NCBI GenBank assembly: GCA_964641255.1
Contig: CAZXMM010000001.1
Span: forward strand, 601,984-665,983
Reading direction: 5' to 3'
Length of the DNA stretch: 64,000 bases
DNA from: an uncultured Gammaproteobacteria bacterium
Lineage (GTDB): Bacteria; Patescibacteriota; Microgenomatia; JAMCZE01
Shown piece after piece: positions 4,283 to 30,601 of this stretch. The position numbers and the translations under genes are program-made. The stretch's first letter is position 1; each line of letters begins with the position of its first letter. A model generated the notes under the pieces. The model had not been told where the DNA came from. It ran no database searches and saw nothing but the letters and a program-made list of their open reading frames with translations.

Positions 4283-4397
4283 AGCTCATTAAATTATAGC
4301 GGATAAAAGGAATAGGCAGTTTTGCAATTAGAAATAGGCTGTAGCGGCAGGTTACAAGAGGGCGGGACAGTACCACAAAAAATAGTTGACTAAAATA

Positions 4398-4982
4398 TTA
4401 AGTGCAGTTTTTACTGTCAAACACAGTAAAATCGTGGAGATCCTTGTCCCTTACGGTATGACCATCCTTATGAAATGCCTTTTTTAGTGCAATAGCTAAT
4501 TCGGGTCGCATGACGTGGACAAGATGTCCCCCCCACTTAACCAAAGTAAATTCTTCATCCCAGGTTTTCTCCCAATTATCTTTCTGTCCGGTTTCGCTAC
4601 TGTACAACGTTTTATCACTATTAACACCAATTGAATAAAAGTCCGCTGAGAAGCAGTCTAGGGGATCCTTGCCATCAAAGGTGGAGTCTGGTGAGTGAGC
4701 AATAAAAGCTTTACTGGGGTCTTTTATCTCCTCATTGGTGCCAAGGATGTAGCCTTTCTTTAGAAACCAGTCTTGCCAAAAGGGAATATCTTCTTGTAAG
4801 GGAGCAATGTCAAGGTCGTCGTGATTTCTGGTCAAAAGCTCGTCTCCCCGCTGGGCAGCTGCTGCTAGTTCTAGGGCCAAGCCGCCAACCACAGCCACTT
4901 TTTTACCGGCCTGTTGGGCGGACAGTAAAATCTCTTCGAGTAAGTCTAAAATCCTTAAGGTCTTTTGGTTGGGAGTAAACAT
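4398..4982 (-). CDS. Nucleotidyltransferase-fold protein, Lnu/ANT(2'')-like
   Basis: VAVVGGLALELAA...RNHDDLDIAP resembles the GG...D.D active-site region of lincosamide/aminoglycoside nucleotidyltransferases. Confidence 0.45.
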   Translation of the reverse strand: MFTPNQKTLRILDLLEEILLSAQQAGKKVAVVGGLALELAAAAQRGDELLTRNHDDLDIAPLQEDIPFWQDWFLKKGYILGTNEEIKDPSKAFIAHSPDSTFDGKDPLDCFSADFYSIGVNSDKTLYSSETGQKDNWEKTWDEEFTLVKWGGHLVHVMRPELAIALKKAFHKDGHTVRDKDLHDFTVFDSKNCT

Positions 4983-5060
4983 GCCTTATCTTATCAAAAG
5001 TCCAAATCAGGGCTGAGGATTATTGTTATAGAAGCTCTGCTTGTGCCTAATTTTTACTAG

Positions 5061-5131
5061 CTGCGGGACATGGATTCGAACCATGATAGAAGGCTCCAAA
5101 AACCTTCGTCCTACCGTTAGACGATCCCGCA
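5061..5131 (-). tRNA. tRNA-Gln (anticodon UUG)
   Basis: Reverse complement folds as TGCGGGA-TC-GTCT-AACGGTA-GGAC-G-AAGGT-TTTTGGA-GCCTT-CTAT-CATGG-TTCGAAT-CCATG-TCCCGCA-G. U1:A72 and G73 are typical of bacterial tRNA-Gln. CCA is not encoded. Confidence 0.8.
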
Positions 5132-6888: not shown

Positions 6889-9354
6889 ATGAATAAGCGC
6901 GTTGGGTTTGGACTCTTAGCCATAATTTTATTAATAGGTTCAATCTTTGTTTTAGGACTGACGCTATTTGTTTTAGGTAAAGACGTCCGACTGTTTAATA
7001 AAGCGGCCAGCAACCAGACTAGCTCTACTGTTAATAAAAGAGTCCAACTCCTCATTATTAATCCCTATTGGCCCGACCAGGGAAAAAAACTTATTGATTA
7101 TTACCGTAGCATTGGTTGGAAGTTCTATGATCCAGTGGATTTAACAAATGGCATTATCTCACGACTTCGGACAGTCAGCGGTGATTATGTAAATTATTCT
7201 ATAGCCGAAGTTAAGGAAATTGATATACCCAGAGCCCGAGACGGACACACTTATCATCCCTCTGAAGTAGCAAATTGTCTCCGAGATAGTGCATACTGCT
7301 ATACTGGAGCAGATAATCGCACCGATTATGCTCAGATATTAATTGACAATCAGTCTTGCGAGAAAAGAAACTTAGGAGAGATAGATGAAGTTTGGATCTG
7401 GGACGATGGAGCTGGGGCACCGCACGGGTTAGAATGGCTAATAGTCGGACGTGGCGCTTGGAGTGAAAACAATCCTGGTATTCATTTTAATGACAGGATT
7501 TCCTGTACTCGACCTTTACCCATCATGAATTTTAATTATCGAGTACCGATTGCTAGCGCTTTCCACTCGTTTGGCCACAGAGTAGAACTAGCTCTTTCAA
7601 GTGTATTCGGTTATGAGTTACTTGACGGCTATTGGGGGCCATATTTTGGAATATTTTCAACTCAGGAGGGGCTAAACCTATTTTCTGACTTTGGGATAAT
7701 TGATAAGTCTCTTTCCACTAGGGCCCGTTGTGGAAATGTGCATTTCCCACCGAACGCCAATTTCGACTCTGACTACGGTAATTACACTACTGTACAATCA
7801 GCCTGTAATAGTTTTTGTAATTTCCAAAATTTAGCTAATCCTTTATTTGAATCTGTTAACCAAAGTACATGGCTCGGTGAATTTAATTCCAATCTTTTAT
7901 CTACCTCTGAACTGGGTTATCAGACCTGGTGGCTACAGCATCTCCCAAAAGCCGCGGGAAAAACCAATGGTATCTTGAATAATTGGTGGAAATATGTTGT
8001 TGACTACGAAAATGCTCTTAATGATCCTGGTTTGGAAGGAGCTCCTAACGCCTACAATAGCTGTGTTGCCCCAATTACCCACGCTTGCGGCGATTTTGTC
8101 TGTTCTAGCGATGAATCCTGTTCTAGTTGTCCAAATGATTGTGGAGCTTGCTCGAATTCACCCTCCGGCCAGGAATCTACTAGCTCATTTAGCTCGCTAT
8201 CAGAATGCAAAATTGACATTTGGAGTCCCAACCGAGAAGCGAGAGTGGGCGATTATGTCCGCTATAAAATTAACTCTTACAAAGAGGGTGGTACCTTGGT
8301 AAATTATTCCACCAATGGCTCGTGTAATACAGCCACAGCCGGACCAGGTGACGATGTTGATGGTATTCCCCTCTGTTTTCGGACGATGGATCGGCAGGCT
8401 AGTTGCGGGGGCCACGCCCAGGTCACCAGCTCCGGCACGTGTTATATTCAAGCCTATTTTTCCAATGGTGAGCGCTGCCAGGCAGATATTGCCGTTCGAC
8501 CTGACAAGCTGCAAGTTAAAGTAGTCAAAAGTTCCGGGGGCAAATATACCCGTCCTTTTACTATTAGAGAGTTTTACTCTGCCGATTGCCCCAGTGGTTG
8601 TAATCAGAGCTGCTCTAATCCGGTGTGCCAAAATCGCAACGTGTTGTACGATCCTAATGGTTGCGGAGGAGTAGGTTGTGCCCAGTTTCCCGACTACACC
8701 CCGCAAGTTGGTTACCAGATCGGACCGTGTCGCAATTGTTCTGATTCTAGCAGTGTTAACTTACCGGCTAATCAAGTAGTAGCTAGTACAACTTGCGGCG
8801 AGTCGGATCGGCTGTGGACGCCCACTAGAGGAGGTGACAGTTGTACGATTACGATCGACGATGGGACAGGAACGTCGGTGCGGGGGTTTGTCTTCAAAGA
8901 CACTAACGGTAACGCGGTCTTCAATAACGAAGGCTTGTTAGGTAATATCAATATTGTTCTTTTTAAAGTGACCAGAGCTGGTTCAGACCGTGTCAGCCAA
9001 ACCGAATCGAGTAAAACTGGCAGCAGTAGTAATTTTCAATTTGGGGTGTCAGCTGAAGGCAATTATCAACTTAATCGGCCCAAATTACCGAGCGGTCGAA
9101 CTTTTATAAATTGTGGGGCCGTAATTCCTCCCAATCGGGGAAAAATTCCCAAAGACAACCACTATTTTTACTGCCAGGGTTTAAATGACAAGGGCAATAA
9201 ATACAAGCTGTTTATTAAAAAATGGACCCCAAGCGGAGAGCAGGCCTTTGTAGACGCGGGCAATAGTTTTAAGGTCCAGCGTGGTAAAACTGCCTACATT
9301 GACATTCCCACAGTTGAACTTAGTTCAGAATTAGGCCAACTAGAGTACGAGTAG
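6889..9354 (+). CDS. Large secreted/anchored Cys-rich protein (821 aa), function unknown
   Basis: N-terminal TM (LLAIILLIGSIFVLGLTLFVL). Dense Cys clusters (CGDFVCSSDESCSSCPNDCGAC; CPSGCNQSCSNPVCQNRNV). No catalytic motif recognised. Confidence 0.4.
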   Translation: MNKRVGFGLLAIILLIGSIFVLGLTLFVLGKDVRLFNKAASNQTSSTVNKRVQLLIINPYWPDQGKKLIDYYRSIGWKFYDPVDLTNGIISRLRTVSGDYVNYSIAEVKEIDIPRARDGHTYHPSEVANCLRDSAYCYTGADNRTDYAQILIDNQSCEKRNLGEIDEVWIWDDGAGAPHGLEWLIVGRGAWSENNPGIHFNDRISCTRPLPIMNFNYRVPIASAFHSFGHRVELALSSVFGYELLDGYWGPYFGIFSTQEGLNLFSDFGIIDKSLSTRARCGNVHFPPNANFDSDYGNYTTVQSACNSFCNFQNLANPLFESVNQSTWLGEFNSNLLSTSELGYQTWWLQHLPKAAGKTNGILNNWWKYVVDYENALNDPGLEGAPNAYNSCVAPITHACGDFVCSSDESCSSCPNDCGACSNSPSGQESTSSFSSLSECKIDIWSPNREARVGDYVRYKINSYKEGGTLVNYSTNGSCNTATAGPGDDVDGIPLCFRTMDRQASCGGHAQVTSSGTCYIQAYFSNGERCQADIAVRPDKLQVKVVKSSGGKYTRPFTIREFYSADCPSGCNQSCSNPVCQNRNVLYDPNGCGGVGCAQFPDYTPQVGYQIGPCRNCSDSSSVNLPANQVVASTTCGESDRLWTPTRGGDSCTITIDDGTGTSVRGFVFKDTNGNAVFNNEGLLGNINIVLFKVTRAGSDRVSQTESSKTGSSSNFQFGVSAEGNYQLNRPKLPSGRTFINCGAVIPPNRGKIPKDNHYFYCQGLNDKGNKYKLFIKKWTPSGEQAFVDAGNSFKVQRGKTAYIDIPTVELSSELGQLEYE

Positions 9355-9364: not shown

Positions 9365-9438
9365 TGGTGGGCGATAAGGGAATCGAACCCCTGTGGCTGC
9401 GATGTAAACGCAGTGCTCTACCATTGAGCTAATCGCCC
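9365..9438 (-). tRNA. tRNA-Val (anticodon UAC), CCA encoded
   Basis: Reverse complement GGGCGAT-TA-GCTC-AATGGTA-GAGC-A-CTGCG-TTTACAT-CGCAG-CCAC-AGGGG-TTCGATT-CCCTT-ATCGCCC-A-CCA. Confidence 0.85.
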
Positions 9439-12137: not shown

Positions 12138-12217
12138 AAAGGTCAGCCGCTGCACTTCAAAGTAGTCTGTACCAACCCCAGTTTTACTTCAACATATATC
12201 TTATAGTAGAATAACTA
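12138..12217 (+). repeat. Intergenic module copy U1 (degenerate 5' box, intact 3' box)
   Basis: 3' end TACTTCAACATATATCTTATAGTAGAATAACTAATG matches the 3' box consensus. Confidence 0.5.
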
Positions 12218-12586
12218 ATGGGCAAATTGGAGAATCCTGTCTGCCAGCCATGTCAGATCTTCGAAAGATGTAAAATCCGCAATCCAAAAGTTGCCAAGTG
12301 GGGATATGAACCTGCTATCTGGGACGACTGCGCTTATTTTACTTGTCTGCCTGCTTTGAGACACGCAGGGAAAGAATTAAATTCCGGGCGGCCCTTTAGA
12401 AGGTACAGCCTTTCCAACGGCAACACAATATTAGCCCTTAGTTTCGATACTCCCGATAAAGAAACTCGTCTCTTTTTCCAAGAAAAGTTGTTTCTCGCGA
12501 TGGAACAATTTATGGAGAAACAGGGAGGGGTTTTGAAAAAACAGGGCAGAAAACTTTTCCTCAATAAAGTGCACCCGGATCGATGA
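12218..12586 (+). CDS. Hypothetical cassette protein (122 aa)
   Basis: ORF starts directly after the 3' box. Confidence 0.4.
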   Translation: MGKLENPVCQPCQIFERCKIRNPKVAKWGYEPAIWDDCAYFTCLPALRHAGKELNSGRPFRRYSLSNGNTILALSFDTPDKETRLFFQEKLFLAMEQFMEKQGGVLKKQGRKLFLNKVHPDR

Positions 12587-12599
12587 ATCAGAGCTAGAA

Positions 12600-12896
12600 T
12601 TATTGCCTCACAGATAGAGAAAAAATTATCCTAGGATTGGGAAGTTTGCCGTGGAACTCCAAATCAGCAACCTCTCTACCTTCTCCATCTCGCACAGCAT
12701 ATAGTGGATGGCCGCCGTAGGGTTTGCCATCAGCTGTGACTTGGATTGCTGTATCTAAATGATGCTTGGCAACATTTACCACATGTTGGCTACTGGCATC
12801 GGTTACTATCTGACGAAGAGTACTAGGAACTGCTTCAAAATACGTGTTAAAAACACAGTCTCTATGGCTTTCGCATGTAATGCTGTATCTCGACAT
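12600..12896 (-). CDS. Hypothetical protein (98 aa), the only opposite-strand ORF in the array
   Basis: ORF track only. Confidence 0.25.
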   Translation of the reverse strand: MSRYSITCESHRDCVFNTYFEAVPSTLRQIVTDASSQHVVNVAKHHLDTAIQVTADGKPYGGHPLYAVRDGEGREVADLEFHGKLPNPRIIFSLSVRQ

Positions 12897-13233
12897 ATAT
12901 CCAAATTATATCTTTTTTATGAAGGAAATAAAGTATTATAGGTTGAGTTCTTTAGTTATTAGGAATTTTAGTTTTAGTAGCTTCAACGAAGAGTCAGATA
13001 AGGCTAATTTTGCGACGGAATGTACCTGTCCGGTTAAACAGAAGTTAATGAATTAAGTCTATCTCCACGTCTTGGGATCACGCTGGTTTCGTGGTCTCGT
13101 ATCTCTCCAGTCCGGATACACGCGACCGGATATAGCGCCTAACAGAAAAGTAATGACCATTCGTACAATTCTTGCCCTGACGCTTTCTTCACCCCACACC
13201 GGTAATTTGCCTTTTCTTGCCATACTCATTCAT

Positions 13234-13438
13234 TTTGCACATCTGGAGCGAGGAATCTTGAACATCTGGAACCGCTTAGTGAATCGATAATTTCACCATA
13301 GAATTTAACTAAATTCGACCAAAAGCCTTTCTGCCAAACATACGTATTATATTTTCTAGTAATTCAATTTTCCTCATTGGTCGTTCTCTGTACTTCATTA
13401 TCTTGTTATTGAACTTAACTTTCTGTTAAGCTGCTAAT
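13234..13438 (+). repeat. Intergenic module copy U2 (5' box variant with ATCTGG insertion; 3' box absent)
   Basis: TTTGCACATCTGGAGCGAGGAATCTTGAACATCTGG. Confidence 0.55.
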
Positions 13439-14227
13439 ATGGTGGATCAAGGCGACTCTTCAAAAAAAATCAATCTGGAGGGGGGAAAAGATGATGAAAC
13501 GTGGGATCAAAACATGTTTCGTGAATACCAGATTGCTTTAGCCGGCGGACGTAAGTTTCTTCTTCCTCTACGTGAATATCCAGGTTTTATTGCCCCAAGT
13601 GAAGAAGGTTATCATTCCTTTATGGATCAAATGCGAGTAGAAAGCGAAAGGGGGGAGCAACTAAATATGACTGGTGTAGATTCTCAGCAACGAAAAGCGC
13701 TTATGAGATCGATTGCCATCCCTGGGGATGTGGACCATGTCTCAGTGGATATCATTCGCAAGGCAATTCAGGAGGCTCGTGATACGGGGAATGTTGATCA
13801 AATCGTGGCAATATACCACTCCCACCCGAGACAACTTCCTTTTCTATGGAGTACTTTGCCGGAGCTTTCAGAATCACGCTCGGCTTATTCGCCGGGGGAT
13901 TTATACTCACTAGTTAATCGAGTTGATTCTTTAGCAATGGCTGGACTAGTAGAGGGAGCTGATAACCTATTGGTATTCAAATCTAGAGAAACAGTCGCAA
14001 CAGAGGTTGACCCATTAATTACGGACTTCGACGCCTTTGAGAGGCACTGGTTTGAAACATATGGCTACGAATATTTAGGATCAGCCTCCAAACTCCATTC
14101 GAAACGAGCTCGGGCCTGGTCTAAAAACGCTGATTTATGGCAAATGAACCTTGGAATCGCAGCTAGACATCGATTAGTCGTGTATAGGGGTTTCAGTAGA
14201 CAAAACCTAGAAAGAGTTTTTCCCTAA
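13439..14227 (+). CDS. Hypothetical protein with divergent JAB/MPN-like HxH...SxxD motif
   Basis: IVAIYHSHPRQLPFLWSTLPELSESRSAYSPGDL. The HSH and SPGD spacing is non-canonical. Confidence 0.4.
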   Translation: MVDQGDSSKKINLEGGKDDETWDQNMFREYQIALAGGRKFLLPLREYPGFIAPSEEGYHSFMDQMRVESERGEQLNMTGVDSQQRKALMRSIAIPGDVDHVSVDIIRKAIQEARDTGNVDQIVAIYHSHPRQLPFLWSTLPELSESRSAYSPGDLYSLVNRVDSLAMAGLVEGADNLLVFKSRETVATEVDPLITDFDAFERHWFETYGYEYLGSASKLHSKRARAWSKNADLWQMNLGIAARHRLVVYRGFSRQNLERVFP

Positions 14228-14246
14228 AGCTAACTAGAAAAAATAT

Positions 14247-14385
14247 GCAACCGGAGCAGGGAACCTTGAACTTCTGGCAGAACTCATTGTTTTAAGCACA
14301 ACTTCTTTCAAATTAGCTTCAATTAGTGAACTGGGGTTTGCTTCGAGGTGTGTCTTATAGTATTATAGCGATACTAATACATCCT
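14247..14385 (+). repeat. Intergenic module copy U3 (partial 5' box, variant 3' box)
   Basis: TGCAACCGGAGCAGGGAACCTTGAACTTCTGG ... GTGTGTCTTATAGTATTATAGCGATACTAATACATCCTATG. Confidence 0.55.
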
Positions 14386-14532
14386 ATGAAACTTTTAGAG
14401 CAATTATTGGGAAGAGCCCCAGAACAAATCGAGATAGCGGGACATATTGCTGACTCTATATCAGCCCAGCAACAATTACAAAGAATTGCGAGAGAGGATG
14501 GTGATGTCGAATTACTACTTCAATCTACTTAG
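14386..14532 (+). CDS. Small hypothetical protein (48 aa from the ATG after the 3' box; the tracked ORF begins at GTG 14326 inside the box)
   Basis: MKLLEQLLGRAPEQIEIAGHIADSISAQQQLQRIAREDGDVELLLQST. Confidence 0.3.
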   Translation: MKLLEQLLGRAPEQIEIAGHIADSISAQQQLQRIAREDGDVELLLQST

Positions 14533-14620
14533 CGTATTCAAGATTTAAAACGGCAAGCTCGGGAGGAGGGATTGGATCCAGAAGATTTTCCCGGCATTTA
14601 TAAAACATAAGCTGCCTAAT

Positions 14621-14653
14621 TGTGCACCTGGAGCGAAGAGTCTTGAACTTCTA
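14621..14653 (+). repeat. Intergenic module copy U4 (5' box only; the downstream slot has no clear ORF)
   Basis: TGTGCACCTGGAGCGAAGAGTCTTGAACTTCT. Confidence 0.6.
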
Positions 14654-15633
14654 AAACCACTACTTGAAACAATAATTCCAAGCATGGATTCGCCAAGATT
14701 CCATCTAGAAACTTTTCCAACACCAAGAATCGAGGCTATTGATTACATTTCTTGAAGACTTGTCGAGTAATCTCCCAGCAAGAGTTGTCTCCGGTTTTTA
14801 ACTTAGTAATGCTCTTACTTCTTCAATACTTTAACTCTTCTTCCCCTAATTGCGCAGGCTTGACCCAGGTTGCATCCATTCGTTCTACAAAATTCGTCGA
14901 CCGCCTCGTCCACAACACGCGCTAATTTTTGGGTAGTTTCTGGATATGCATTTAATTCAAGTACGGCGGGCTTGAGGTCGATACTAGTAGCTGCAAAAAT
15001 AAGTTTTGGCTCCGAAGAGTCCGGCTCATTGTCATTTACAAGCTCAAAATTTATTGGCGTTATTGTTAAATACTCGGTACCCGTGAGACAAAAGGCTGAA
15101 AAGGGTTCATCCGCAATTTGAATATGCTCAGTATGATAAGAACCTTCATCTTACTGTTGCAATGCTTGAGTGTCCAATTCCTTTGCCATTCCTAGTTATA
15201 CCATGGGGGCTACTCTTGGTAGTATTACGGGCGGGTTCCATACACTCGATGTTGACTTACGCAACCAAGAGATTGATTTTTTAAGTAAGGCCCAAATTGC
15301 TATAATTGCGTATGACTTGGAAAGACGGGTTGCAAATAATCGGAGAGGTGAAAGAAGTTTGCAATTATGGAGGACCACTACTTTCGCCACTAGATGAGGA
15401 GGGCAGAAAAGCCCCAAGGGACGATGCTTCTAGTACTATCTTTTGTATGCCTAAGCTATTCGCAGCGGTACAGTCACGTGACACGCGTTGCTTTCTGCTA
15501 GCTGGCGGTGTGTGCCCTCGTGGATACCTAGAAAAAAATTTTCCATTAGAACTTCGAAGCCGCCTCACGAAGGAGCGTTAATTTATGGACCCGCAGAAAA
15601 AACAAGAAGCCTGCTTTATAAAGCTAAAAACAC

Positions 15634-15758
15634 TGTGCACCTGGAGCGATGAGTCTTGAACTTCTAGTTGAGAGCATAGTGCTAAACACAATTATCTTCG
15701 ATTTACCTTCAAACAAGCAGAATTTTACTTCAAGATATATCTTATAGTATAATGAGGG
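15634..15758 (+). repeat. Intergenic module copy U5 (complete)
   Basis: TGTGCACCTGGAGCGATGAGTCTTGAACTTCT ... TTTTACTTCAAGATATATCTTATAGTATAATGAGGG followed by ATG. Confidence 0.7.
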
Positions 15759-16262
15759 ATGGGGTATTCGGACGCAGAAAGATGCAGAATTCAATTGGAG
15801 AAAAGTAGTGCCCGCTCTCGGCTCACCATATGCTCTCCATATGCTACGGATTGTATTTTGCCCTTCTCACTTACAGATGAGGCTACAAATGACTGGTACT
15901 TTGCTGCATATATGGGTTATGGCACTTTGACCCATCACATCCTGAGTGATTTAGCTCATAAAAGTCTAATTGACTATATAAGGCATAAACATCCATCAGG
16001 AGATCTTAAAAAAGTAGTAGAAACAGTCCACAGTCGAATAAATCAAGCAGAAATTGGAGTGATCTTTACAGAACAACATAGTGCTCAATATGACCATGCA
16101 TTTTCTGTGAAGAAATCGTTAAAAGGAGGCTTACTACTTTTCGATTTACATCAACCGGTACCTCAAAACGTTACTTTGAGCGATATTGTTGCCAGAGTTG
16201 TTAATAGAGGCAGCCCAAATCGGGACATGTTTGTAGTTAATAAAGGGAAAAGGCTACGCTAA
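15759..16262 (+). CDS. Hypothetical cassette protein (167 aa)
   Basis: ORF track. Start is 5 nt after the 3' box. Confidence 0.4.
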   Translation: MGYSDAERCRIQLEKSSARSRLTICSPYATDCILPFSLTDEATNDWYFAAYMGYGTLTHHILSDLAHKSLIDYIRHKHPSGDLKKVVETVHSRINQAEIGVIFTEQHSAQYDHAFSVKKSLKGGLLLFDLHQPVPQNVTLSDIVARVVNRGSPNRDMFVVNKGKRLR

Positions 16263-16284
16263 AATAAAGTAACAACTTTTTAAT

Positions 16285-16419
16285 TGTGCACCCGGAGCGA
16301 TTAGTCTTGAACTACTGAAATCGCTTGCGGAATCAGTACTTTTAAAGTGGAAAGTTCCTACGTTTAGCTTAGAATGCAGTGAGTTTGCTTCAAGATATGT
16401 CTTATAGTATAATGGGGTT
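16285..16419 (+). repeat. Intergenic module copy U6 (complete)
   Basis: TGTGCACCCGGAGCGATTAGTCTTGAACTACT ... GAGTTTGCTTCAAGATATGTCTTATAGTATAATGGGGTT followed by ATG. Contains a GTCTTGAA / TTCAAGAT inverted repeat. Confidence 0.7.
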
Positions 16420-16779
16420 ATGGATGAAACTTATAAACCATGGGTAGTCTCATTTAGCGCAGACGGAATCTGTACACGAAAGGGCATATGCAAGTTGGCT
16501 GATATAGGAAGATGTAAATTTGGTACTAGGAGAGGAGCGCCTGTTCGAGGTAGTGCAGCAGCTGAAACTGCCGAAGTAGCCAGGGTATTTGCAGACGCCG
16601 ACTTACTAATAGACATTAAAACCGCTGAAGCTGAGCAACAAGAAATGTTTCCACGCTCAATTAAAAACGGGGAAGCCATTAGATGTGATATTCGGCCTCA
16701 CAATGTTGGATCATTGATGCAAAATACTGCAACGGGTGATAGGTACGCGTTGATTAAAGGGCGCTACACTAGAATATAG
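16420..16779 (+). CDS. Hypothetical cassette protein (119 aa)
   Basis: ORF track. Confidence 0.4.
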   Translation: MDETYKPWVVSFSADGICTRKGICKLADIGRCKFGTRRGAPVRGSAAAETAEVARVFADADLLIDIKTAEAEQQEMFPRSIKNGEAIRCDIRPHNVGSLMQNTATGDRYALIKGRYTRI

Positions 16780-16797
16780 GTAGCAAAAAAGTTTGTT

Positions 16798-16924
16798 TGT
16801 GCACCTGGAGCGAGGAATCTTGAACTGCTTGCGGAGAATATAATACTAAGCACGATTTTTTTAAATTAGCTTCACCAATGAATCAGAATTTAGCCTTGCA
16901 TTATATCTTATAGTATAATGCGGC
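16798..16924 (+). repeat. Intergenic module copy U7 (complete)
   Basis: TGTGCACCTGGAGCGAGGAATCTTGAACTGCTTGCGGAG ... CCTTGCATTATATCTTATAGTATAATGCGGC followed by ATG. Confidence 0.7.
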
Positions 16925-17635
16925 ATGATAAACAGATCGCTGGAAATTGGTGTAGGAGGTTCCAATCATCTAGATATTTATGCTCAAGGAAAGGGACGTA
17001 AAGTCTTTGGAATTGATATACGTCAAGATGTAGCTGAAAGAAGAAAAAAAGATACTCCCAATGGGGTCTTCATTGTAGCTGATGCTCATAATTTACCTTT
17101 TGCTAGTGGCATATTTGATGAAGCTTTCGCAACAAACTCACTGGAGCATGTAGATAATCCTGGTCAAGTATTAAGGGAAGCACATCGAACTTTAAAGCAC
17201 AAAGGAAGAATCACTATAGACGTACCACATCCTCGCTATGATCGTGTAATGGGCTGGCTAGCAAACAAGGATGGTGCTTACCATAGAGAAACTCACAAAC
17301 AAGTTTTTAAACCACAAGAAATTTTCAATATCACACAAGAGGCTGGATTTAAAGTTACTGAGTTTTCTACCAGAATGTGGAAATCTGCTGTTAAGCTAAC
17401 TACACGGTGGCTCGTAGCACGTGCTCTTGGAAAACTTGATTATGATCCAGACACAGGAGAGCTGCTTTCCTTGCCTCCTGAAAGAAAAGGGATTGTTAGA
17501 CGAGAAGTAGACCGACTATTATGGTTATCCGAAAACAAGTCGGCTTCGCCTAAGAGGTACTATTTACTCTCACTCCTGCGATTACCAAATCTCATTTACC
17601 CTTGGGCAACTTATATTGAAGCTATTAAAGAATAG
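16925..17635 (+). CDS. Class I SAM-dependent methyltransferase (Methyltransf_11-like)
   Basis: LEIGVGGSNH (motif I-like), GIDIRQD, LPFASGIFDEAFATNSLEHVDNP, KHKGRITIDVP. Confidence 0.6.
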   Translation: MINRSLEIGVGGSNHLDIYAQGKGRKVFGIDIRQDVAERRKKDTPNGVFIVADAHNLPFASGIFDEAFATNSLEHVDNPGQVLREAHRTLKHKGRITIDVPHPRYDRVMGWLANKDGAYHRETHKQVFKPQEIFNITQEAGFKVTEFSTRMWKSAVKLTTRWLVARALGKLDYDPDTGELLSLPPERKGIVRREVDRLLWLSENKSASPKRYYLLSLLRLPNLIYPWATYIEAIKE

Positions 17636-17638
17636 TTT

Positions 17639-18118
17639 ATGAGGGCAAAAGATAAACCTACATTACTGGACCGAGAACTTGGTTTAGCAAAAAGAAGTTT
17701 AAAACGTATAAGCGCTACACCCATAGAAAAAAATGGCATTCCCTCGCTTATGTATAAAGCAGGCATTTTAATAGCGCAAAGACAAATTGAACAAGGGGGA
17801 CTGACGGCTGCCCGCATAGCTATTTCACGAAGAATTGTGAGAGAAAGAAGTTTATTAGATAATATGGCAATACAAAACCTTACTGAAGCATTAATACGAC
17901 CCATTAACAAACAGCATGCTGCCTTTTATTACGGAGTAGATGTGCTTTTATACCTAGAAGAGCTAGAACGAAAGTGGGAGAAATATGCTGACCGTCGTGA
18001 CTGGGATGAAAGGATGGAAGTAAGACGGGAGGTTGAGTTTTATTTAACAGGTGATCAAAACGCAGTGGGAAATAAAGATCCACGAGGTAGATTAGTTGAG
18101 ATGCTTGAAGAAGCCTAA
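17639..18118 (+). CDS. Hypothetical protein, co-cassette with the methyltransferase (no module between them)
   Basis: ORF track. 4-nt gap to the upstream gene. Confidence 0.45.
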   Translation: MRAKDKPTLLDRELGLAKRSLKRISATPIEKNGIPSLMYKAGILIAQRQIEQGGLTAARIAISRRIVRERSLLDNMAIQNLTEALIRPINKQHAAFYYGVDVLLYLEELERKWEKYADRRDWDERMEVRREVEFYLTGDQNAVGNKDPRGRLVEMLEEA

Positions 18119-18191
18119 GGAGAACTGTGGCCGTTTGAAAGTGGGCACAGGAAAAGTTTACTCGCTATATAAACCATCCGGAAGCTAATAT

Positions 18192-18329
18192 TGTGCACCT
18201 GGAGCGAACAGTCTTGAACTTCTCAAATCATCGGCTGAAGCAATAACTTCGAGCGCAACTTCATTTGAATTAGCTTCGGATTTTTCGAAAAGTTTTGATT
18301 TGGAGTATATCTTATAGTATAATGACCTT
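18192..18329 (+). repeat. Intergenic module copy U8 (complete)
   Basis: TGTGCACCTGGAGCGAACAGTCTTGAACTTCT ... TTGGAGTATATCTTATAGTATAATGACCTTGTG. Confidence 0.7.
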
Positions 18330-18707
18330 GTGTCTGAGCTCTCAAAATATGCCGATTTGATGCTAAGAAAGGTTCTTGTTACCTCTGAGGTTACAAAACA
18401 GACTTTTCCAGGTACTGACATGGCTCTTATCGGTTCTCTCGCTCGTTATCTCGCCGGTATAGTAATTCCAAATAAAAATGAATTTAGCTTAAGCTCTGAC
18501 GCTGACTTGGCGGTATGCTTTCCTTTCGACATATATCCTTTCACCGAATTTACGTTGGAAGACTTACTACGAGCTAAAATGAAAAACCGGAGAGTTACTA
18601 TGGGGGGCGAGAAAGGTCAAGTACAATTTGCCGCTGTGTCTGCATTAAATAAGCCAATGCCAAGATGGGCCCTAAAGGAAATAAAAATGTATGGTAAGAA
18701 AATTTAA
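18330..18707 (+). CDS. Hypothetical cassette protein (125 aa)
   Basis: ORF track. Confidence 0.4.
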   Translation: MSELSKYADLMLRKVLVTSEVTKQTFPGTDMALIGSLARYLAGIVIPNKNEFSLSSDADLAVCFPFDIYPFTEFTLEDLLRAKMKNRRVTMGGEKGQVQFAAVSALNKPMPRWALKEIKMYGKKI

Positions 18708-18741
18708 ACCTTAATAAAAGAGATTAAAACAGTATTTACGT

Positions 18742-18927
18742 TGTGCACCTGGAGCAGAAGTCTTGAACCGCTGAGAACTCTGACAGAATCGATCATTTCA
18801 AACGGGAACAAAGCTGGTTTAGACATAGGAGCTCCTCCACTCATCCCAAATACCGTACAACCCACCTACATTTACTAATACTAGCTTTGGCTTGATTTAA
18901 CAATTACTTCGCCTTATACTCACCGAA
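18742..18927 (+). repeat. Intergenic module copy U9 (5' box intact, 3' box degenerate)
   Basis: TGTGCACCTGGAGCAGAAGTCTTGAACCGCT ... CCTTATACTCACCGAAATG. Confidence 0.6.
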
Positions 18928-19992
18928 ATGCAGACAGGAGAGCTATTACAAGCAGAAGTAGCTGGCCTAATGATCTACGACGTCAAAGCTCTAGGGGGAC
19001 GTGCAGTAGAGCGGGCCAATATCACTGAGCGAGGACTCATGGATCAATCCGGCAGGCGAGATCACCAGTTTTTGGTGGTTGAAGCAGTTCCAATCGATGC
19101 TAATGGCGTTCATAAGTTTCTTCGACAAAATGACCACATAACCAGAGATACTCCGGAGGGAATGGCAGCAATGGCTAGAGTAATTCCCCAGTTGGACGGA
19201 CAGCAAATGCTTCTAACGTGGGATGGCAACAAAAAGGATGCCATTGAAATTGACAATCCTAGACAACAAGGTGGCCGAATGAAGGTCAACATATGGAAGC
19301 ATGACGTTAATGCAATTAATCAAGGAGATGGCGCCAACAAATGGCTAAGTGACCACTTAGGACATGAGGTTGTTGTCGTTAAGATGGATTCAGCAGACGC
19401 ACGCCCAGTCAGCGAAAAATACACGCCTAATGACAGTCGGGTCCTTGCTCAAGACGCCTATCCTATAAATACCGCTTTAATTGAATCCGCTAAAAGAGTT
19501 TCTGAACTAGCAGGAATGGATATTCCTTGGACTCACTATCGTCCTCAAATAGCAATTAAAGATATACCCGATAAATCGGAACATAAGATCTCTACTGTGG
19601 ATATCAGGAACAGAGCAAGTGATGAACTTATTGCAACAGCCATTCACGGTAAGCCTGGTGTCCGGTGCCGAGTGACCGGTGTTATTCCCAACTTGGGAAC
19701 TAGGCTCCCGGGTAATCAACCGTTAACGGCTTTGGGCAAAGAAAGAGCTTGGATCGATGGTGACGGAGATCTACAACTTATTTTTGCAGAAAACCTCATT
19801 GTCAAAGGCCAAGGAGAAATTGTAGTAGGGGATAAGTATATTGGGACATCGTCTCGCTATCCTCGTCTGGTTTATGGACCAATTGAAAAAATGAAAGCTG
19901 TTCAAAAAGAGGTCAAAAAAGAAATGGCCAAACGAGGCGGGAGCATATCTGCACGGGAAATGGCTTTTATAGTCCAATCTTTGGCAGCATAA
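18928..19992 (+). CDS. MOSC-domain protein (MOSC_N beta-barrel plus MOSC domain)
   Basis: N-terminus LLQAEVAGLMIYDVKALGGRAVERANITERGLMDQSGRRDHQFLVV resembles MOSC_N. A conserved Cys context (GKPGVRCRVTGV) follows. Confidence 0.45.
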   Translation: MQTGELLQAEVAGLMIYDVKALGGRAVERANITERGLMDQSGRRDHQFLVVEAVPIDANGVHKFLRQNDHITRDTPEGMAAMARVIPQLDGQQMLLTWDGNKKDAIEIDNPRQQGGRMKVNIWKHDVNAINQGDGANKWLSDHLGHEVVVVKMDSADARPVSEKYTPNDSRVLAQDAYPINTALIESAKRVSELAGMDIPWTHYRPQIAIKDIPDKSEHKISTVDIRNRASDELIATAIHGKPGVRCRVTGVIPNLGTRLPGNQPLTALGKERAWIDGDGDLQLIFAENLIVKGQGEIVVGDKYIGTSSRYPRLVYGPIEKMKAVQKEVKKEMAKRGGSISAREMAFIVQSLAA

Positions 19993-20288
19993 TCGTACTC
20001 CTCTAAAATATCCTCCTATGTCCAAATTTTTGATGTTATAAGCTAGACTTGAATAATTATTAGCTACTTTTGACTCCGTAGCTTCAGTTCAAAGGCGGAT
20101 AATGGCTAATATACGACATGGCAAAACTTCAGAGAATGTTAAAATATAGCTAACCGTTCGGAAGAACTTTATTTTATAAATTCAAAAGTTAATTCACCAA
20201 TATAGCTATTAATAAGAAATTACTAAAATTCGGGTTACTGGCGGCAACGACGACATATCTACCCACGCTTGATGCCATTCTTTCCCCT

Positions 20289-21056
20289 TTGATTTCTTCA
20301 CAACCTTTTTGGACTGTTGTTTGGGTTTCCGCCATTGGACTATACAATCTTTATCTTTATGCGGAACAAGACAAATTAAATGAAGTTACGGAGTTTATAT
20401 ACGAAAACCCAGATAAATTTACTAAATCAATTGTAAGTTCAACCTATTTCAGGAGTAACTTTTTAAAGTTTTTAGGAGAATATTTGAAACAGAGTAACAA
20501 GCGAAAAAGAGAAGCATTAAAGAAAATCCTGCTGCAATCATTATCTAAAGAGGAGGACGAAAAGTTTGAGATTGACCGGCTAAATAACGTATTAAGCCAA
20601 ATTTCGCTAGGAGCAATAAGAAATTTGCTTTTTATCAAATCTCATTTCATCCCTCAAATTGAAAAGGAAATAGAATATGAGGTACAAAGTTATGACCATA
20701 AGAACAATCCCAAAGAGATAACAAGGCTTAAAGACATTACAAAAGCTCGAAAAAATATCTCCGACTACATACAACGTTGGATTCATGATAATTTTGATCC
20801 CGATAGTCATATAGTTAAACAGAAGTATCATTATGATGATTCTTGGGATCAGGCACAAAAAATGAAATTTAATACTGACCATTCGATTAAGAAACATACG
20901 ATTGAAAAAGAAATACATTCTTACTGGCCTGAGTACGTAAGTTTAGGAATTATGAGTTCCGTAACCGATGGAGTAGGACAAATGGGAGGGGCTGGCGGTA
21001 CTGTTTATAAGCTGACGCAATTTGGAGAAAGCTTTATTGAATTCATAGAACCTTAG
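20289..21056 (+). CDS. Hypothetical protein (AT-rich, Lys/Glu-rich)
   Basis: ORF track. Confidence 0.4.
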   Translation: MISSQPFWTVVWVSAIGLYNLYLYAEQDKLNEVTEFIYENPDKFTKSIVSSTYFRSNFLKFLGEYLKQSNKRKREALKKILLQSLSKEEDEKFEIDRLNNVLSQISLGAIRNLLFIKSHFIPQIEKEIEYEVQSYDHKNNPKEITRLKDITKARKNISDYIQRWIHDNFDPDSHIVKQKYHYDDSWDQAQKMKFNTDHSIKKHTIEKEIHSYWPEYVSLGIMSSVTDGVGQMGGAGGTVYKLTQFGESFIEFIEP

Positions 21057-21063
21057 TAATGGT

Positions 21064-21175
21064 TGTGCACCATCTGGGACGATGTTCGTACCTACATAAC
21101 CTCCCAGATCGATCCTCTCGAAAAATCAACACTCATCACCGCAATTGCCTACTTCAAACAGAAGGAGGCTAAACT
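21064..21175 (+). repeat. Intergenic module copy U10 (variant 5' box with SD; GTG start)
   Basis: TGTGCACCATCTGGGACGATG ... CCTACTTCAAACAGAAGGAGGCTAAACTGTG. It starts 7 nt after the upstream stop codon. Confidence 0.5.
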
Positions 21176-21676
21176 GTGAACCCACTTAACTTCCTCAAAC
21201 TAGGCCGAAAACAGAACCTACGAGACTCTCAGGGTGCACTAGAGAGTATTTTATACGATGAAACGACCTTTTACCACCGTTTCACTAAAGACTTAGCAAC
21301 AGCCAAAAGTGAAGTTATTATCGAGAGTCCATTCATTACTGTACCGAGACTTAGAGTGCTTAAGCCTTTCTTTGAAAAATTAATAAATAGGCGGGTCAAA
21401 GTCTTCATAATTACCAAAGACCCAAGTGAGCTTGACGAGAACATGAGTATCCAAGCTGAATCTGGCATACAATTTTTTGAGGAGTTAGGTGTGCAAGTGG
21501 TACTTTGTAAAGGTCATCATAGAAAATTAGCCATCATAGATAGAAATGTACTTTGGGAAGGCAGCCTCAACATTTTGTCGCAATCTTGCAGTCGTGAATT
21601 TATGAGAAGGATAAACAGCAAACAATTGGCGGAAGAAACCTTTAAGTTTTTGAAACTCGAAAAGTGCGTCAGTTAG
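21176..21676 (+). CDS. PLD-family nuclease (Nuc-like, single HKD motif)
   Basis: VVLCKGHHRKLAIIDRNVLWEGSLNILS contains an H-x-K-x4-D motif. The size (166 aa) is similar to plasmid Nuc endonucleases. Confidence 0.6.
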   Translation: MNPLNFLKLGRKQNLRDSQGALESILYDETTFYHRFTKDLATAKSEVIIESPFITVPRLRVLKPFFEKLINRRVKVFIITKDPSELDENMSIQAESGIQFFEELGVQVVLCKGHHRKLAIIDRNVLWEGSLNILSQSCSREFMRRINSKQLAEETFKFLKLEKCVS

Positions 21677-21708: not shown

Positions 21709-21942
21709 ATGGACTCAAATAACCCAGTCACAGAAAAATCTAGATTGGTCATTCAGGCAATGATATATGCCAACGAGAACAGTCTGAATGTTAACGATCT
21801 TAAAGACGTAAACAAGATTCTTGAAGCGCTTAACGTTCAAGACGAAGATCCTCAGGAATTCATGAATCTTTTACAGCATGCCGAAGATTTTATGGATATG
21901 TCAGCACCAGACGATGGGCACAAAAAGGGCTTAGTTAATTAA
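21709..21942 (+). CDS. Small acidic hypothetical protein
   Basis: ORF with a strong SD (GAAAGGAGGTG) upstream. Confidence 0.35.
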   Translation: MDSNNPVTEKSRLVIQAMIYANENSLNVNDLKDVNKILEALNVQDEDPQEFMNLLQHAEDFMDMSAPDDGHKKGLVN

Positions 21943-26684: not shown

Positions 26685-28892
26685 TTAGATTTTTAACAAG
26701 CTTTTTTCGGTGCGCTTGAGGAGTACTGCGTTCACTGCGACAATAATTGATGAAGCAGACATTAAAAGTGCTGCAAACTCAGGCCGCAGGGTGATTCCAA
26801 ACTTTGGATACAAAACTCCAGCAGCAATTGGAATGGCCAGAAGATTATAAACACTAGCCCAGGCTAGATTTTCTTTCATTTTTCGCACCGTGGCTTTTGA
26901 CAAACGGATTGCACGTAAGACATCTGCCGGGTCTGATCGCATCAGAACTACTTTAGCTGTTTCAATAGCCACATCGGTCCCGGCACCAATGGCAATGCCA
27001 ATATCTGCTTGGGCGAGTGCTGGAGCATCGTTGACGCCGTCACCAACCATGTCGACAAATTTGCCTTCATCTTGGAGCTTTTTAACATATTTTTCCTTAT
27101 CCTCTGGCAGAACCTCCGCAAAAACTCTTTCGATGCCGAGGCTTTTTGCCACACCATCTGCTGTCATTTTATTATCTCCCGTGATCATTGCCACTTCCAG
27201 GCCTAACTCTTTCATTTTGGTTACTGCGTCTTTAGCGTTTTCTTTTATGGGATCTTGGGCAGCGGCTACACCCGCCACTTTTCCATCGACTGATAAAACC
27301 ATAATGGTTTTTCCTTCAGACAAAAGCCGGTCAATATCCTTACTTAGGGCTGTAGTGTCTACATTCCTATCAGCCATGAGCTTTAAAGTGCCGACCAAAA
27401 TCTTTTTACTATCAACAATGGCCTCGACCCCATGACCAGATATTGAGTTGAACTTTTCGACCTTTTCAGAAATCATTAGTTTTCTTCTTTGTGCTTCTTC
27501 CAGAACAGCTTTACTTAAAGGATGCCCTGATTTTGCTTCCACAGCAGCATCAAGTTTTATAATGTCATTTTCAGTAAATCCTGTAGCTGCCACCACGTCG
27601 GTAATTTTTGGTTTCCCCTCTGTTAGGGTCCCAGTTTTGTCCATGACAACTGCTTGAATCTTTGAAACAGCTTCAAGTGTCGGTGCGTCCTTAATAAGAA
27701 TGTTGTGTTTTGCTCCTAGGCCTGTTCCCACAGCCACGGCAGTGGGAGTTGCTAGTCCCAAAGCATCGGGACAAGCAATAACTACAGTCGAAATTGCAAA
27801 ACTTAGGGCGAGAAGGAGCGGCTGACCCAGGATAAAAAACCAGACGACAAAGGTAATTAGACCTCCGCCGACAGCGACAATTACCAGATATTTAGCAAAT
27901 CGATCGGCAATTTTTTGCCCGGGAGCCTTGGAGCTTTGAGCCAGCTCAACCATTTTGACGATTTGAGCTAGAGCGGTATCCTCTCCCACTTTTGTGGCCT
28001 TAAATTGAACTGAACCAGAAGTGTTGATTGAGCCGCCGATAACCATATCACCAACTTTTTTGGAAACCGGGAGAGACTCTCCTGTCACCAAGGATTCGTC
28101 AATTGCTGTTTCTCCTTGTACAATTTCACCATCCACGGGAACTTTGTCACCAGGTTTAAGGATTAAAATATCGCCCAGCTTTACTTCTGAAGTCGGGATT
28201 AGTTCTTCTTTCCCATTTCGTAATATTCTGGCTTGCGGTGGAACTAAATTAAAGAGCGCTTGTAAGGCATCAGTTGTTCCACGCCTGGACTTCATCTCCA
28301 TCCAATGGCCAAAGAGAACAAAGGTAATAAGAAGTGCCGCGGCTTCGTAATAGGAGTCCCCACTGCCAAGAAAGGTAAGAAGAACACTAAAGCTATAGGC
28401 AGCAGTTATTCCAACAGCAATTAAAACTGCCATGTTAAGGGTTTTTGCTTGCAGGGCTTTATAGGTAGAATAAAGGAAAATCCAGCCGGAATAAAAAAAT
28501 ACTGGCGTAGTTAAGAAAAAGAGCAGCCAAGGCACGGGGATCGGTGAGGGCAAAGAAATCTTTAAAAATTGAGTTGCCAGGGGGGAATAAAGAATTATTG
28601 GGATTGAAAAGAAGAGAGAAAAGAAGAATTTATTGCGAATATCCTCTTCCATAAGTGCGGCCATCTCTCGACCAGCCAGGCCAGTGTGCTCCATCCCCAT
28701 ACTCATTGTCATGCTCATTTTGAATTTGTCCCACCTAGACATTTCGGAAACCGCCTTCATTGTGTGTTCTTTGTGCCCATCGTGATCCATTTTCATTTCT
28801 TTGAGAATTAATTTCATGCCACACTTTGGGCAGGTTCCAGGATCACTTTGTTGGACTTCCGGATGCATCGGGCAGGTGTAGATTTGCTTCAT
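26685..28892 (-). CDS. P1B-type copper ATPase (CopB/CopA-like) with N-terminal YTCPMHPEV...CPKCGM metal-binding domain, His/Met-rich stretch, and a CPD motif in place of CPC
   Basis: DKTGTLT, TGDN, GDGVNDAP, YN and MSASS TM motifs. VIACPDALGLATP in TM6. Confidence 0.8.
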   Translation of the reverse strand: MKQIYTCPMHPEVQQSDPGTCPKCGMKLILKEMKMDHDGHKEHTMKAVSEMSRWDKFKMSMTMSMGMEHTGLAGREMAALMEEDIRNKFFFSLFFSIPIILYSPLATQFLKISLPSPIPVPWLLFFLTTPVFFYSGWIFLYSTYKALQAKTLNMAVLIAVGITAAYSFSVLLTFLGSGDSYYEAAALLITFVLFGHWMEMKSRRGTTDALQALFNLVPPQARILRNGKEELIPTSEVKLGDILILKPGDKVPVDGEIVQGETAIDESLVTGESLPVSKKVGDMVIGGSINTSGSVQFKATKVGEDTALAQIVKMVELAQSSKAPGQKIADRFAKYLVIVAVGGGLITFVVWFFILGQPLLLALSFAISTVVIACPDALGLATPTAVAVGTGLGAKHNILIKDAPTLEAVSKIQAVVMDKTGTLTEGKPKITDVVAATGFTENDIIKLDAAVEAKSGHPLSKAVLEEAQRRKLMISEKVEKFNSISGHGVEAIVDSKKILVGTLKLMADRNVDTTALSKDIDRLLSEGKTIMVLSVDGKVAGVAAAQDPIKENAKDAVTKMKELGLEVAMITGDNKMTADGVAKSLGIERVFAEVLPEDKEKYVKKLQDEGKFVDMVGDGVNDAPALAQADIGIAIGAGTDVAIETAKVVLMRSDPADVLRAIRLSKATVRKMKENLAWASVYNLLAIPIAAGVLYPKFGITLRPEFAALLMSASSIIVAVNAVLLKRTEKSLLKI

Positions 28893-28941
28893 ATTACTAA
28901 TAATATCTCACTTTTGTTAAAAGAGGGTTTTTAAAATAGCT

Positions 28942-29583: not shown

Positions 29584-29770
29584 GATGCTCCCCCTTTCCT
29601 TTTGTGTTGTCCTTGCCGTGTTCCCCATGACCTGCATGCATAAAAAGATGAGCGAGGATAAAAGCCCCCAGCAAAATATATTGCACATTACCAAAAAGAT
29701 GTGCTTGGTGTTCGGTTAGAAGATAAAAAGAGAGTGCCACTCCTGAGATAATAAGTACGGTAGTTTTCAT
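29576..29770 (-). CDS. DUF2933-like small His-rich membrane protein
   Basis: One TM region, then HLFMHAGHGEHGKDNTKGKGEHHG. Confidence 0.4.
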   Translation of the reverse strand: MKTTVLIISGVALSFYLLTEHQAHLFGNVQYILLGAFILAHLFMHAGHGEHGKDNTKGKGEHHG

Positions 29771-30584: not shown

Positions 30585-30601
30585 ATATTTTCACCTCCAA
30601 T

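Follow-up and report, generated by a model that had tools for sequence, protein, structure and literature searches.

Promoter-bearing repeats in a tRNA-bounded hot spot of a small bacterial genome as possible integration scars of large serine recombinases

We analyzed an array of small genes within a 64,000-nt stretch of DNA (positions 601,984–665,983 of contig CAZXMM010000001.1; hereafter, the window), which is part of a small genome (a 950-kb NCBI contig) with most proteins having no close relatives. The gene content and contig size suggest a small-genome, CPR-like bacterium. Between 12.1 and 18.9 kb of the window, cassette-sized units are separated by copies of one intergenic module, which consists of a conserved 5' box, a variable middle and a 3' box with a promoter. 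We propose, with a probability of about 45%, that elements encoding large serine recombinases have repeatedly integrated, in a site-specific manner, at the tRNA-Leu(gag) 3' end, and that these modules are the scars of such events. This interpretation is supported by the location of the array between the tRNA-Val and tRNA-Leu(gag) genes, the junction at the tetranucleotide GTGC, the open reading frame (ORF) of a recombinase that crosses this junction, and the continuity of the reading frame from the recombinase into a module.

Copies of the module were defined by alignment and by an nhmmer module profile. In the window, the 5' box TGTGCACCTGGAGCGA has eight matches at no more than three mismatches (12568–18757; 0.37 expected), and the 3' box TATCTTATAGTATAATG has six (12197–18324; 0.23 expected), all of them on the plus strand. 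The initial annotation had described ten direct repeats of about 130 bp on the coding strand. The repeats and their orientation are confirmed and exceed chance, but only five copies carry both boxes, at 14243, 15632, 16283, 16797 and 18190; three others have only the 5' part (13236, 14619 and 18741) and one has only the 3' part (12172). A degenerate 5' box at 12568, absent from the initial list of module starts, comes in addition to these copies, whereas the copy listed at 21064 is doubtful and was missed by the profile. The 5' box starts 7–73 nt past the upstream stop codon instead of the 7–25 nt reported initially, and the units measured from one 5' box to the next range from 377 to 1394 bp. 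The copies are as follows:

12172–12217, plus strand: 3'-part-only copy with -35 element TTTACT, -10 element TAGAAT and the ATG of the 122-aa gene 5 nt further on.
12568–12600, plus strand: degenerate 5' box AGTGCACCCGGATCGATGAATC, at the point where tRNA-Leu(gag) starts in the related contig L139 (introduced below), with GTGC common to both.
13236–13293, plus strand: 5'-part-only copy, after two minus-strand genes.
14243–14371, plus strand: full module with the open frame YATGAGNLELL...ASRCVL, then stop.
14619–14692, plus strand: 5'-part-only copy, followed by approximately 1 kb of decayed sequence without an intact ORF.
15632–15757, plus strand: full module, -10 element TATAAT ending 5 nt before the ATG at 15759.
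16283–16418, plus strand: full module of the long type, with a 9-nt in-frame insertion.
16797–16923, plus strand: full module upstream of the methyltransferase gene, its frame broken by a 1-nt indel.
18190–18327, plus strand: full module of the long type.
18741–18878, plus strand: 5'-part-only copy, whose fusion at GTGC with the 57920 recombinase ORF gives an in-frame 43-codon tail.
21064–21090, plus strand: doubtful, highly degenerate 5'-box-like stretch TTGTGCACCATCTGGGACGATG.

The profile detected no further copies in the rest of the window or in the 10 kb past each of its ends, and the family is thus restricted to one locus, 12.1–18.9 kb, within the 84 kb examined. The array is exactly the same in an independent Logan assembly, and it does not differ among the three assemblies that contain it. 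Exact-pattern scans of GTDB representatives, JGI metagenomes and IMG/VR, a route to further arrays suggested in the initial annotation, returned single chance matches only, and a BLAST comparison with phages and plasmids returned no match. All modules share a sharp left edge at GTGC, and their alignment shows no inverted ends or target duplications. A miniature inverted-repeat transposable element or a dispersed intergenic repeat was rejected, as there are no terminal inverted repeats or target-site duplications and only a single locus in 84 kb.

The three parts of the module are conserved to different degrees. The 5' third is a 33-nt box that is 69–89% identical between copies, the middle is weakly conserved (38–63% identity), and the nearest neighbors of a copy differ slightly between the 5', middle and 3' segments. 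A promoter occupies the 3' third, with a -35 element (TTTACT or TTGCTT), a spacer of 17–18 nt and a TATAAT box, and near-consensus promoters of this kind are present in all five full modules. Each full module is therefore predicted from its sequence to supply its own strong sigma-70-like promoter, in agreement with the initial annotation, and the spacer and -10 context TATCTTATAGTATAAT are conserved far past a generic promoter. The -10 box ends 5–6 nt before the ATG or GTG start codon in five copies and 19 nt before it in one; at the shorter distance the transcript should begin at the start codon, i.e., be leaderless. Leaderless starts seem to be the rule in this genome, where a TATAAT-like box lies 5–10 nt before the start without a Shine-Dalgarno site (e.g., at 2347 and 10814, and on the minus strand at 26685, 30837 and 32242). 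The leaderless promoter layout is thus a habit of the genome and not specific to the array. Two exceptions are the PLD-like gene (21176–21676) and the following 77-aa gene (21709–21942), which have clear AGGAGG Shine-Dalgarno sites, suggesting their recent acquisition from a different kind of host.

The 5' box contains the palindrome GTGCAC in seven copies. This hexamer occurs nine times in 12.5–21.3 kb, whereas outside the array it was observed once versus 7.0 expected occurrences in approximately 60 kb of host-like sequence. The palindromes ACGCGT, GGATCC and GGGCCC are likewise avoided, which suggests restriction-site avoidance.

We further checked the modules for secondary structure. Folding of five modules as DNA, on both strands, was no better than that of shuffled sequences (z from -1.8 to +1.45), and the RNAalifold consensus fold reached just -3.35 kcal/mol. 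None of the modules contains a terminator-like hairpin, and none matches Rfam even at E ≤ 10. These results rule out attC sites, single-stranded DNA promoters and terminators of the type found in phage PeSL cassettes as explanations. An Frpo-like single-stranded promoter of a conjugative leading region, a candidate prompted by the genes of a type IV secretion system (T4SS) and a relaxase at 47–57 kb, was rejected for want of a hairpin on either strand, and a known RNA family or structured RNA was rejected because nothing was found in Rfam. A decayed minus-strand tRNA gene was also considered, as T-loop-like and acceptor-like pieces can be recognized, but there is no covariance-model match, and alignments with window and L139 tRNAs score at noise level.

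The modules contain a reading frame without a start. It is open for 37–41 codons from the TGT of the 5' box to a conserved TAG in the 3' box and encodes the peptide CAPGAxSLELL..AExI.LS..F.LAS..F.SRY(I/V)L, followed by the stop. The TGT-to-TAG distance is a multiple of three in five of the six full copies (five from the window and one from L139), with lengths of 111–123 nt. In the variable middle of those five copies this frame has no stops, compared with one to three in the other two plus-strand frames, the probability of a stop-free middle being 0.14–0.22 per copy. Third codon positions are the most variable (0.49 versus 0.35 and 0.36), and the ratio of nonsynonymous to synonymous differences (pN/pS) is 0.66 in the module frame versus 0.79–1.05 in the other five frames, in an alignment that was protein-guided and thereby biases this test. 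The frame lacks a start codon in every copy, and an in-frame stop is found 1–6 codons upstream of each. The module of L139 also keeps the frame open (CAHGARNLELL...SNYIL, then stop). We conclude from these patterns that the copies have probably diverged under coding constraint, as the 3' end of a gene whose complete form never appears in assembled genomes. The peptide has no match in the six frames of the window, in Pfam, among 5.8e9 clustered proteins or among 1.84e9 representatives, as would be expected if only excised forms encode it.

Four other accounts of this frame were rejected. Recoding of TAG or TGA as sense codons, prompted by four TAGs with open frames after them, is at odds with ordinary stop usage and the presence of tandem TAG-TAA stops. 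Frameshifting or read-through from the upstream gene is contradicted by the in-frame stop before every module ORF, the upstream gene ending earlier still. An antisense small gene could use the in-register minus-strand frame, which is also open, but the latter has no conserved start or promoter. Finally, a complete gene ending in the module peptide was not found in six frames, Pfam or large protein sets.

The array is located in a hot spot with the following tRNA borders:

9365–9438, minus strand: tRNA-Val, the left border, 100% identical to the tRNA-Val of L139.
59549–59634, minus strand: tRNA-Leu(gag), the right border and candidate attachment target, with its 3' end (TGGTGC) abutting the recombinase gene.

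The relative used for comparison, Logan contig L139, encodes a homologue of the array methyltransferase with 81% identity and has NfeD and Band_7 (84% amino acid identity) and the identical tRNA-Val in common with the window; coding DNA of the two is 73–75% identical. The interval from tRNA-Val to tRNA-Leu(gag) measures 2.46 kb in L139 and 50 kb in the window. The order in L139 is tRNA-Gln, tRNA-Val, three small genes, the methyltransferase gene, 67 nt, a full module, the homologue of the 122-aa gene, tRNA-Leu(gag) and tRNA-Leu(cag), whereas in the window the array, copper-resistance genes, the T4SS and relaxase genes and a large serine recombinase gene lie between tRNA-Val and tRNA-Leu(gag). 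Around the modules, the gene order is g166, methyltransferase, module, g116 in L139, as opposed to 3' box, g122 ... g167, module, g119, module, methyltransferase, g159, module in the window. The breakpoints of homology lie at or inside modules, one of them inside a module at 12180 (in a comparison with one relative that has one module), and the 12172 copy is orthologous to the 3' part of this sole L139 module. The spacer upstream of the L139 methyltransferase gene is short (54 nt). Directly after the g122 homologue, homology ends at GTGC, where L139 continues as tRNA-Leu and the window as the 12568 box. This box is a candidate for the oldest attL-type junction, and it is the only copy for which an empty-site junction at the tRNA 3' end was observed. 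In the module alignment, the 33-nt box differs at two positions between the window consensus and L139; two changes against a background of 73–75% coding identity fit a protein-binding half-site. None of the window copies is nearer to the L139 module than the window copies are among themselves, indicating that the module family is older than the split of the two genomes.

The borders of the hot spot belong to a cluster of minus-strand tRNA genes (Gln, Val, Leu, Leu, Phe, Gly, Pro, Leu) located at 5060–5131, 9365–9438 and 59549–60158 in the window and at 8650–8797 and 11260–11453 in L139. The cluster is contiguous in L139 but for the 2.46-kb insert, and it is split twice in the window, where 4.2 kb are inserted between Gln and Val and the 50-kb insert separates Val from Leu(gag).

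Two large serine recombinases, which the initial annotation had pointed to as possible partners of the modules, proved to be the best lead. Their ORFs run through tRNA genes:

57920–59662, plus strand: large serine recombinase with the Pfam domains Resolvase, Recombinase and Zn_ribbon_recom, its last 38 codons running antisense through tRNA-Leu(gag).
60395–62020, minus strand: large serine recombinase of a prophage, running antisense through tRNA-Gly(gcc).

The ORF of the former enzyme, a candidate integrase of the T4SS-bearing element, reads ...SSLW and then CGREELNL... antisense through tRNA-Leu(gag). The prophage recombinase has the same sequence in the window and in contig L133 up to ...CCGATA/TGGAGCGGG and then passes through a different tRNA-Gly gene in each, resulting in proteins of 541 and 544 aa. 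Its ORF tail is supplied by the host in both contexts, and these two integration contexts indicate that the attachment core is the tRNA 3' end and that the ORF crosses it. When the 57920 ORF is joined at GTGC to the 18742 copy, an in-frame 43-codon tail results, CTWSRSLEPLRTLTESIIS...TYIY followed by a stop, with the family motif SLEPL..ESII..YIY before the stop. Joining to the 12568 copy gives a 14-codon tail, CTRIDESELELLPHR (...SELELLPHR), again closed by a stop. The 18741 copy is a candidate attL of the present conjugative element.

From these observations we infer a cycle of integration and decay. Recombinase genes of the integrating elements would run across their own attachment site, so that in the free circular element the ORF would extend beyond the crossover (core GTGC) and be closed in the element's other end by a short tail and a stop, with the strong leaderless promoter of the first cargo gene right after it. 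That other end of the circle would hold an ORF fragment without a start, cut off sharply at the core, and this matches the look of the modules. After integration, the piece with the tail and promoter would stay at the far (left) junction as a start-less, sharp-edged fragment; a module would thus combine an element-side half-site with the recombinase gene's native 3' tail and with the promoter that serves the first cargo gene. Repeated integration, each time with loss of most of the element, would stack units of half-site, tail, promoter and cargo gene, the newest being nearest to the tRNA, and homologous recombination between the repeats may have reshuffled the units later. The present T4SS-bearing element would span approximately 18743–59554, and older remnants would occupy 12568–18741. 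The predicted attP is ...AGTTCTCTATGGTGC joined to ACCTGGAGCAGAAGTC, with the junction ...AAAAAAGTTCTCTATGGTGC/ACCTGGAGCAGAAGTCTTGAACCGC, and the predicted restored empty site is ...GTATTTACGTTGTGC/GGACGAGAGGAGTTGAACC.

Several points weigh against the interpretation of the modules as integration scars. The coding signal of the module frame is modest, and its pN/pS estimate comes from the protein-guided alignment. Copies 14621, 15634, 16285, 16797 and 18190 are out of phase with the 57920 ORF and would give tails of 4–6 codons, so that other recombinase variants must be assumed for most modules. The box resembles tRNA 3' ends only weakly (TGGAGCG, a T-loop-like GTTCAAGAC, and three to four of five T-stem pairs), with box–tRNA alignment scores at noise level and no hit by the tRNA covariance model. 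In L139 the module has the methyltransferase gene on one side and the g122 homologue on the other and does not mark a visible element end, and no recombinase was found in the 11.5 kb of sequence covering this locus. Serine integrases are normally unable to reuse a site after attB has been split, the partial loss of elements required here has no demonstrated mechanism, and no excision junction was observed. No second copy of the tRNA-Leu end was found at three or fewer mismatches; sites of serine integrases require no long identity.

Among other explanations, the modules could be non-coding mobile regulatory cassettes similar to PeSLs, where a portable strong promoter preceded by a protein-binding box would have spread among the accessory genes of a hypervariable island and the copies, through ordinary homologous recombination, would cause genes to be deleted, inserted and reordered, a kind of biology that has been described (PMC2839356, PMC4122927). 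This would agree with the near-consensus promoter of each full module, with cargo made of ORFans without PHROG, PADLOC or NCBIfam matches, with the different gene order in L139 and its breakpoint within a module at 12180, with the variable internal breakpoints of the 5'-only and 3'-only copies, and with the slightly different nearest neighbors of the three segments. Another contig, L143, even has its own unrelated module of about 110 nt, which ends TTATAGGGTATAAT before a homologous methyltransferase gene. However, the modules have no stem-loop or terminator, and such cassettes leave unexplained the start-less frame with its in-frame length changes, the sharp shared left edge at GTGC and the in-frame fit to the recombinase ORF; moreover, the 54-nt spacer before the L139 methyltransferase gene cannot arise from module–module recombination. 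We consider this alternative rather unlikely, although it is partly compatible with integration scars and could operate on top of them. In a plain regulon, a tandem-duplicated promoter-operator would be retained by selection so that one factor co-regulates the genes, without any role in mobility, but gene content differs between relatives exactly at the array. The conserved spacer and -10 context, a 5' box that could be an operator or activator site, and the status of the modules as old paralogues, with the L139 copy standing no nearer to any of those in the window than they do to each other, are in line with a regulon; but the 5'-only copies precede minus-strand or decayed genes and have nothing to regulate, the frame-preserving pattern is not accounted for, and no regulator gene was identified. 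We regard a regulon as improbable.

The initial annotation had favored a self-contained new cassette system, functionally integron-like, with the 5' box serving as the site at which a recombinase acting in trans excises and inserts single cassettes. Much of its description stands: this is a cassette-like array of unrelated, mostly same-strand genes, its content and order differ from those of L139 at the level of cassettes, with breakpoints at or inside modules, and aligning the modules defined their consensus boxes, albeit with no folded structure on either strand. The cassette-sized units, the direct orientation with a sharp left edge, the conservation of the 33-nt box at the nucleotide level, the different array position of the g122 unit in L139 and the palindrome GTGCAC, present in the boxes despite its avoidance elsewhere, would all suit such a system. 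On the other hand, nothing shows excision, the site is not folded, no recombinase adjoins the array (the neighboring ORFans yielded no usable model), the three array-bearing assemblies are identical, and the pattern is met in GTDB representatives, JGI metagenomes and IMG/VR only as chance matches. Scars of whole elements at tRNA-Leu(gag) offer a better reading, and a dedicated cassette system has in our estimate a low probability. The locus is not a canonical integron, as was also noted initially: no attC-like fold and no tyrosine recombinase were found among the ORFs scanned. An ordinary integron, or a cluster of attC sites lacking the integrase (CALIN), with unrecognized attC sites would explain the overall look of small unrelated same-strand genes with repeats between them, and the missing IntI alone is not decisive because CALINs lack intI. 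Nevertheless, with modules that fold no better than shuffles and have a negligible consensus fold, conservation of sequence and not of structure, cassettes with their own promoters, and no Phage_integrase domain in window ORFs of at least 278 aa, this possibility is practically negligible.

By analogy, the nearest known kinds appear to be tandem island remnants at tRNA genes together with archaeal SSV-type integrases that have the att site in their own gene. Like genomic islands and integrative and conjugative elements (ICEs), which accrete in tandem at tRNA genes as whole elements or remnants, the array occupies a tRNA-bounded hot spot with an integrase gene directly next to the tRNA 3' end, direct repeats at the presumed former junctions, and unrelated accessory cargo that varies between relatives. 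Unlike in such islands, the remnants here are cassette-sized (0.4–1.4 kb), with a regularity that mimics an integron, the repeats appear to be start-less ORF tails with promoters instead of copies of the tRNA end, and the recombinases are of the serine type, for which site reuse is not expected. The 'suicidal' integrases of the archaeal SSV type have their att site within the integrase gene, and according to a 2021 review such self-disrupting recombinases are known only from archaea (PMC8371274). The locus resembles them in the recombination site inside the integrase ORF, the tRNA target, and the separation of the ORF end from its body upon integration, which would leave a start-less fragment at the far junction; the differences are a bacterial host and a large serine recombinase in place of a tyrosine recombinase. 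As only the last 30–45 codons or so are exchanged here, the enzyme is probably not inactivated.

In mycobacteriophage BPs and its relatives, which use integration-dependent immunity, attP also lies inside a coding gene and integration alters the C-terminus of the product (PMC4557955), but that gene encodes the repressor and the integrase belongs to the tyrosine recombinases, whereas here it is the recombinase gene itself. PeSLs of T4-type phages, promoter-terminator cassettes with a strong sigma-70-like promoter and a stem-loop (PMC2839356, PMC4122927), may be viewed as the nearest functional analogue of the promoter part of the module. In both cases a conserved intergenic module with such a promoter fills the stop-to-start gap between ORFans of a hyperplastic region and is linked to indels and replacements between relatives; in contrast to PeSLs, the modules have no stem-loop terminator, precede predicted leaderless genes without Shine-Dalgarno sites, contain the additional conserved 33-nt box and frame-preserving stretch, and reside in a bacterial chromosome or ICE and not in a phage. 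With integrons and CALINs the array shares small unrelated same-strand genes, a repeated element between them and cassette-like sizes; it differs in having no attC fold, no IntI, a conserved sequence instead of a conserved structure, and a promoter in each unit. Integron cassettes are mostly promoterless and expressed from Pc.

A broader proposal is that large serine recombinases of this lineage carry attP in the 3' end of their own gene and target tRNAs, and that repeated integration followed by decay builds, by natural gene capture, an integron-like array of cargo cassettes with their own promoters; we put it forward tentatively, as the odds are somewhat against it. If true, the archaeal self-splitting integrases would have a counterpart of the serine type in bacteria, and the arrangement of an att site inside an integrase gene would extend to bacteria and to serine recombinases, with each 'attC-like' repeat representing an integrase tail plus a half-site. 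It would also constitute a second route to an integron-like array, from serine-recombinase scars at a tRNA gene, that needs neither an integron integrase nor a folded attC. The predicted attP/attB pair of the 57920 enzyme could make a tRNA-targeting integrase of an uncultivated lineage with small genomes available for genome engineering, and the locus offers a clean set of predicted strong leaderless promoters for a lineage with uncharacterized promoters.

The cargo genes span 12218–21056 between the modules:

12218, plus strand: 122-aa gene.
12600–13229, minus strand: two genes.
13439, plus strand: 262-aa gene with an HxH..S..D motif.
14386, plus strand: 48-aa gene with an in-frame TAG.
15759, plus strand: 167-aa gene.
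16420, plus strand: 119-aa gene.
16925, plus strand: SAM methyltransferase gene, with a 159-aa partner at 17639.
18330, plus strand: 125-aa gene.
18928, plus strand: MOSC_N protein gene.
20289, plus strand: 255-aa gene.

The cargo proteins are mutually unrelated, as initially stated, except for two weakly similar methyltransferases. Most of them belong to no Pfam, PHROG, PADLOC or NCBIfam family, the exceptions being two class-I SAM methyltransferases, the MOSC_N protein and the PLDc_2 protein; Pfam thus confirms the Methyltransf_11, MOSC_N and PLDc_2 assignments of the initial annotation, and its JAB-like protein is unconfirmed. The cassette proteins have no relatives in IMG/VR. AlphaFold gave no usable model for neighboring ORFans of 203 and 563 aa (pLDDT of about 30), and the genomic contexts of distant homologues of an 821-aa flank protein were uninformative. 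Two units are decayed: in 14386–14609 the in-frame TAG is followed by 25 further, apparently coding codons, and 14653–15633 has only overlapping short frames and a 111-codon minus-strand frame without a start codon. The cassette methyltransferase (16925–17635) begins only about six residues before the SAM-binding motif I (LEIGVGGS), and its homologues are equally short (234–243 aa), which indicates a compact family and not a truncation. A homologue with 50% identity is encoded by L143, a JGI metagenome contig, amid copies of the unrelated module mentioned above (2150–2281, 3039–3149, 4340–4411 and 4838–4884). The L143 module ends about 10 nt before the gene start, is also present as 5'-only copies beside reversed genes and has no open frame. 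Module-punctuated arrays may be a wider habit of the lineage.

Between the array and the T4SS genes (26685–46168) there is a copper and heavy-metal block with two P-type ATPases, a multicopper oxidase, a DsbD/cupredoxin/HMA protein, a two-component system and a BlaR1-like peptidase. The conjugation genes (47195–57260, minus strand) encode a VirB4-like ATPase, a T4SS pilin/TrbL-like protein, a coupling protein and a Replic_Relax protein, and an AbiEii toxin gene is located within this region (51965–53233). The prophage to the right of the tRNA cluster (60395–64000 and contig L132) is integrated at tRNA-Gly(gcc) and contains genes for a GpA-type terminase, two DNA methylases, an ECF-type sigma factor, an HTH/Peptidase_M78 pair and a DUF3800 protein.

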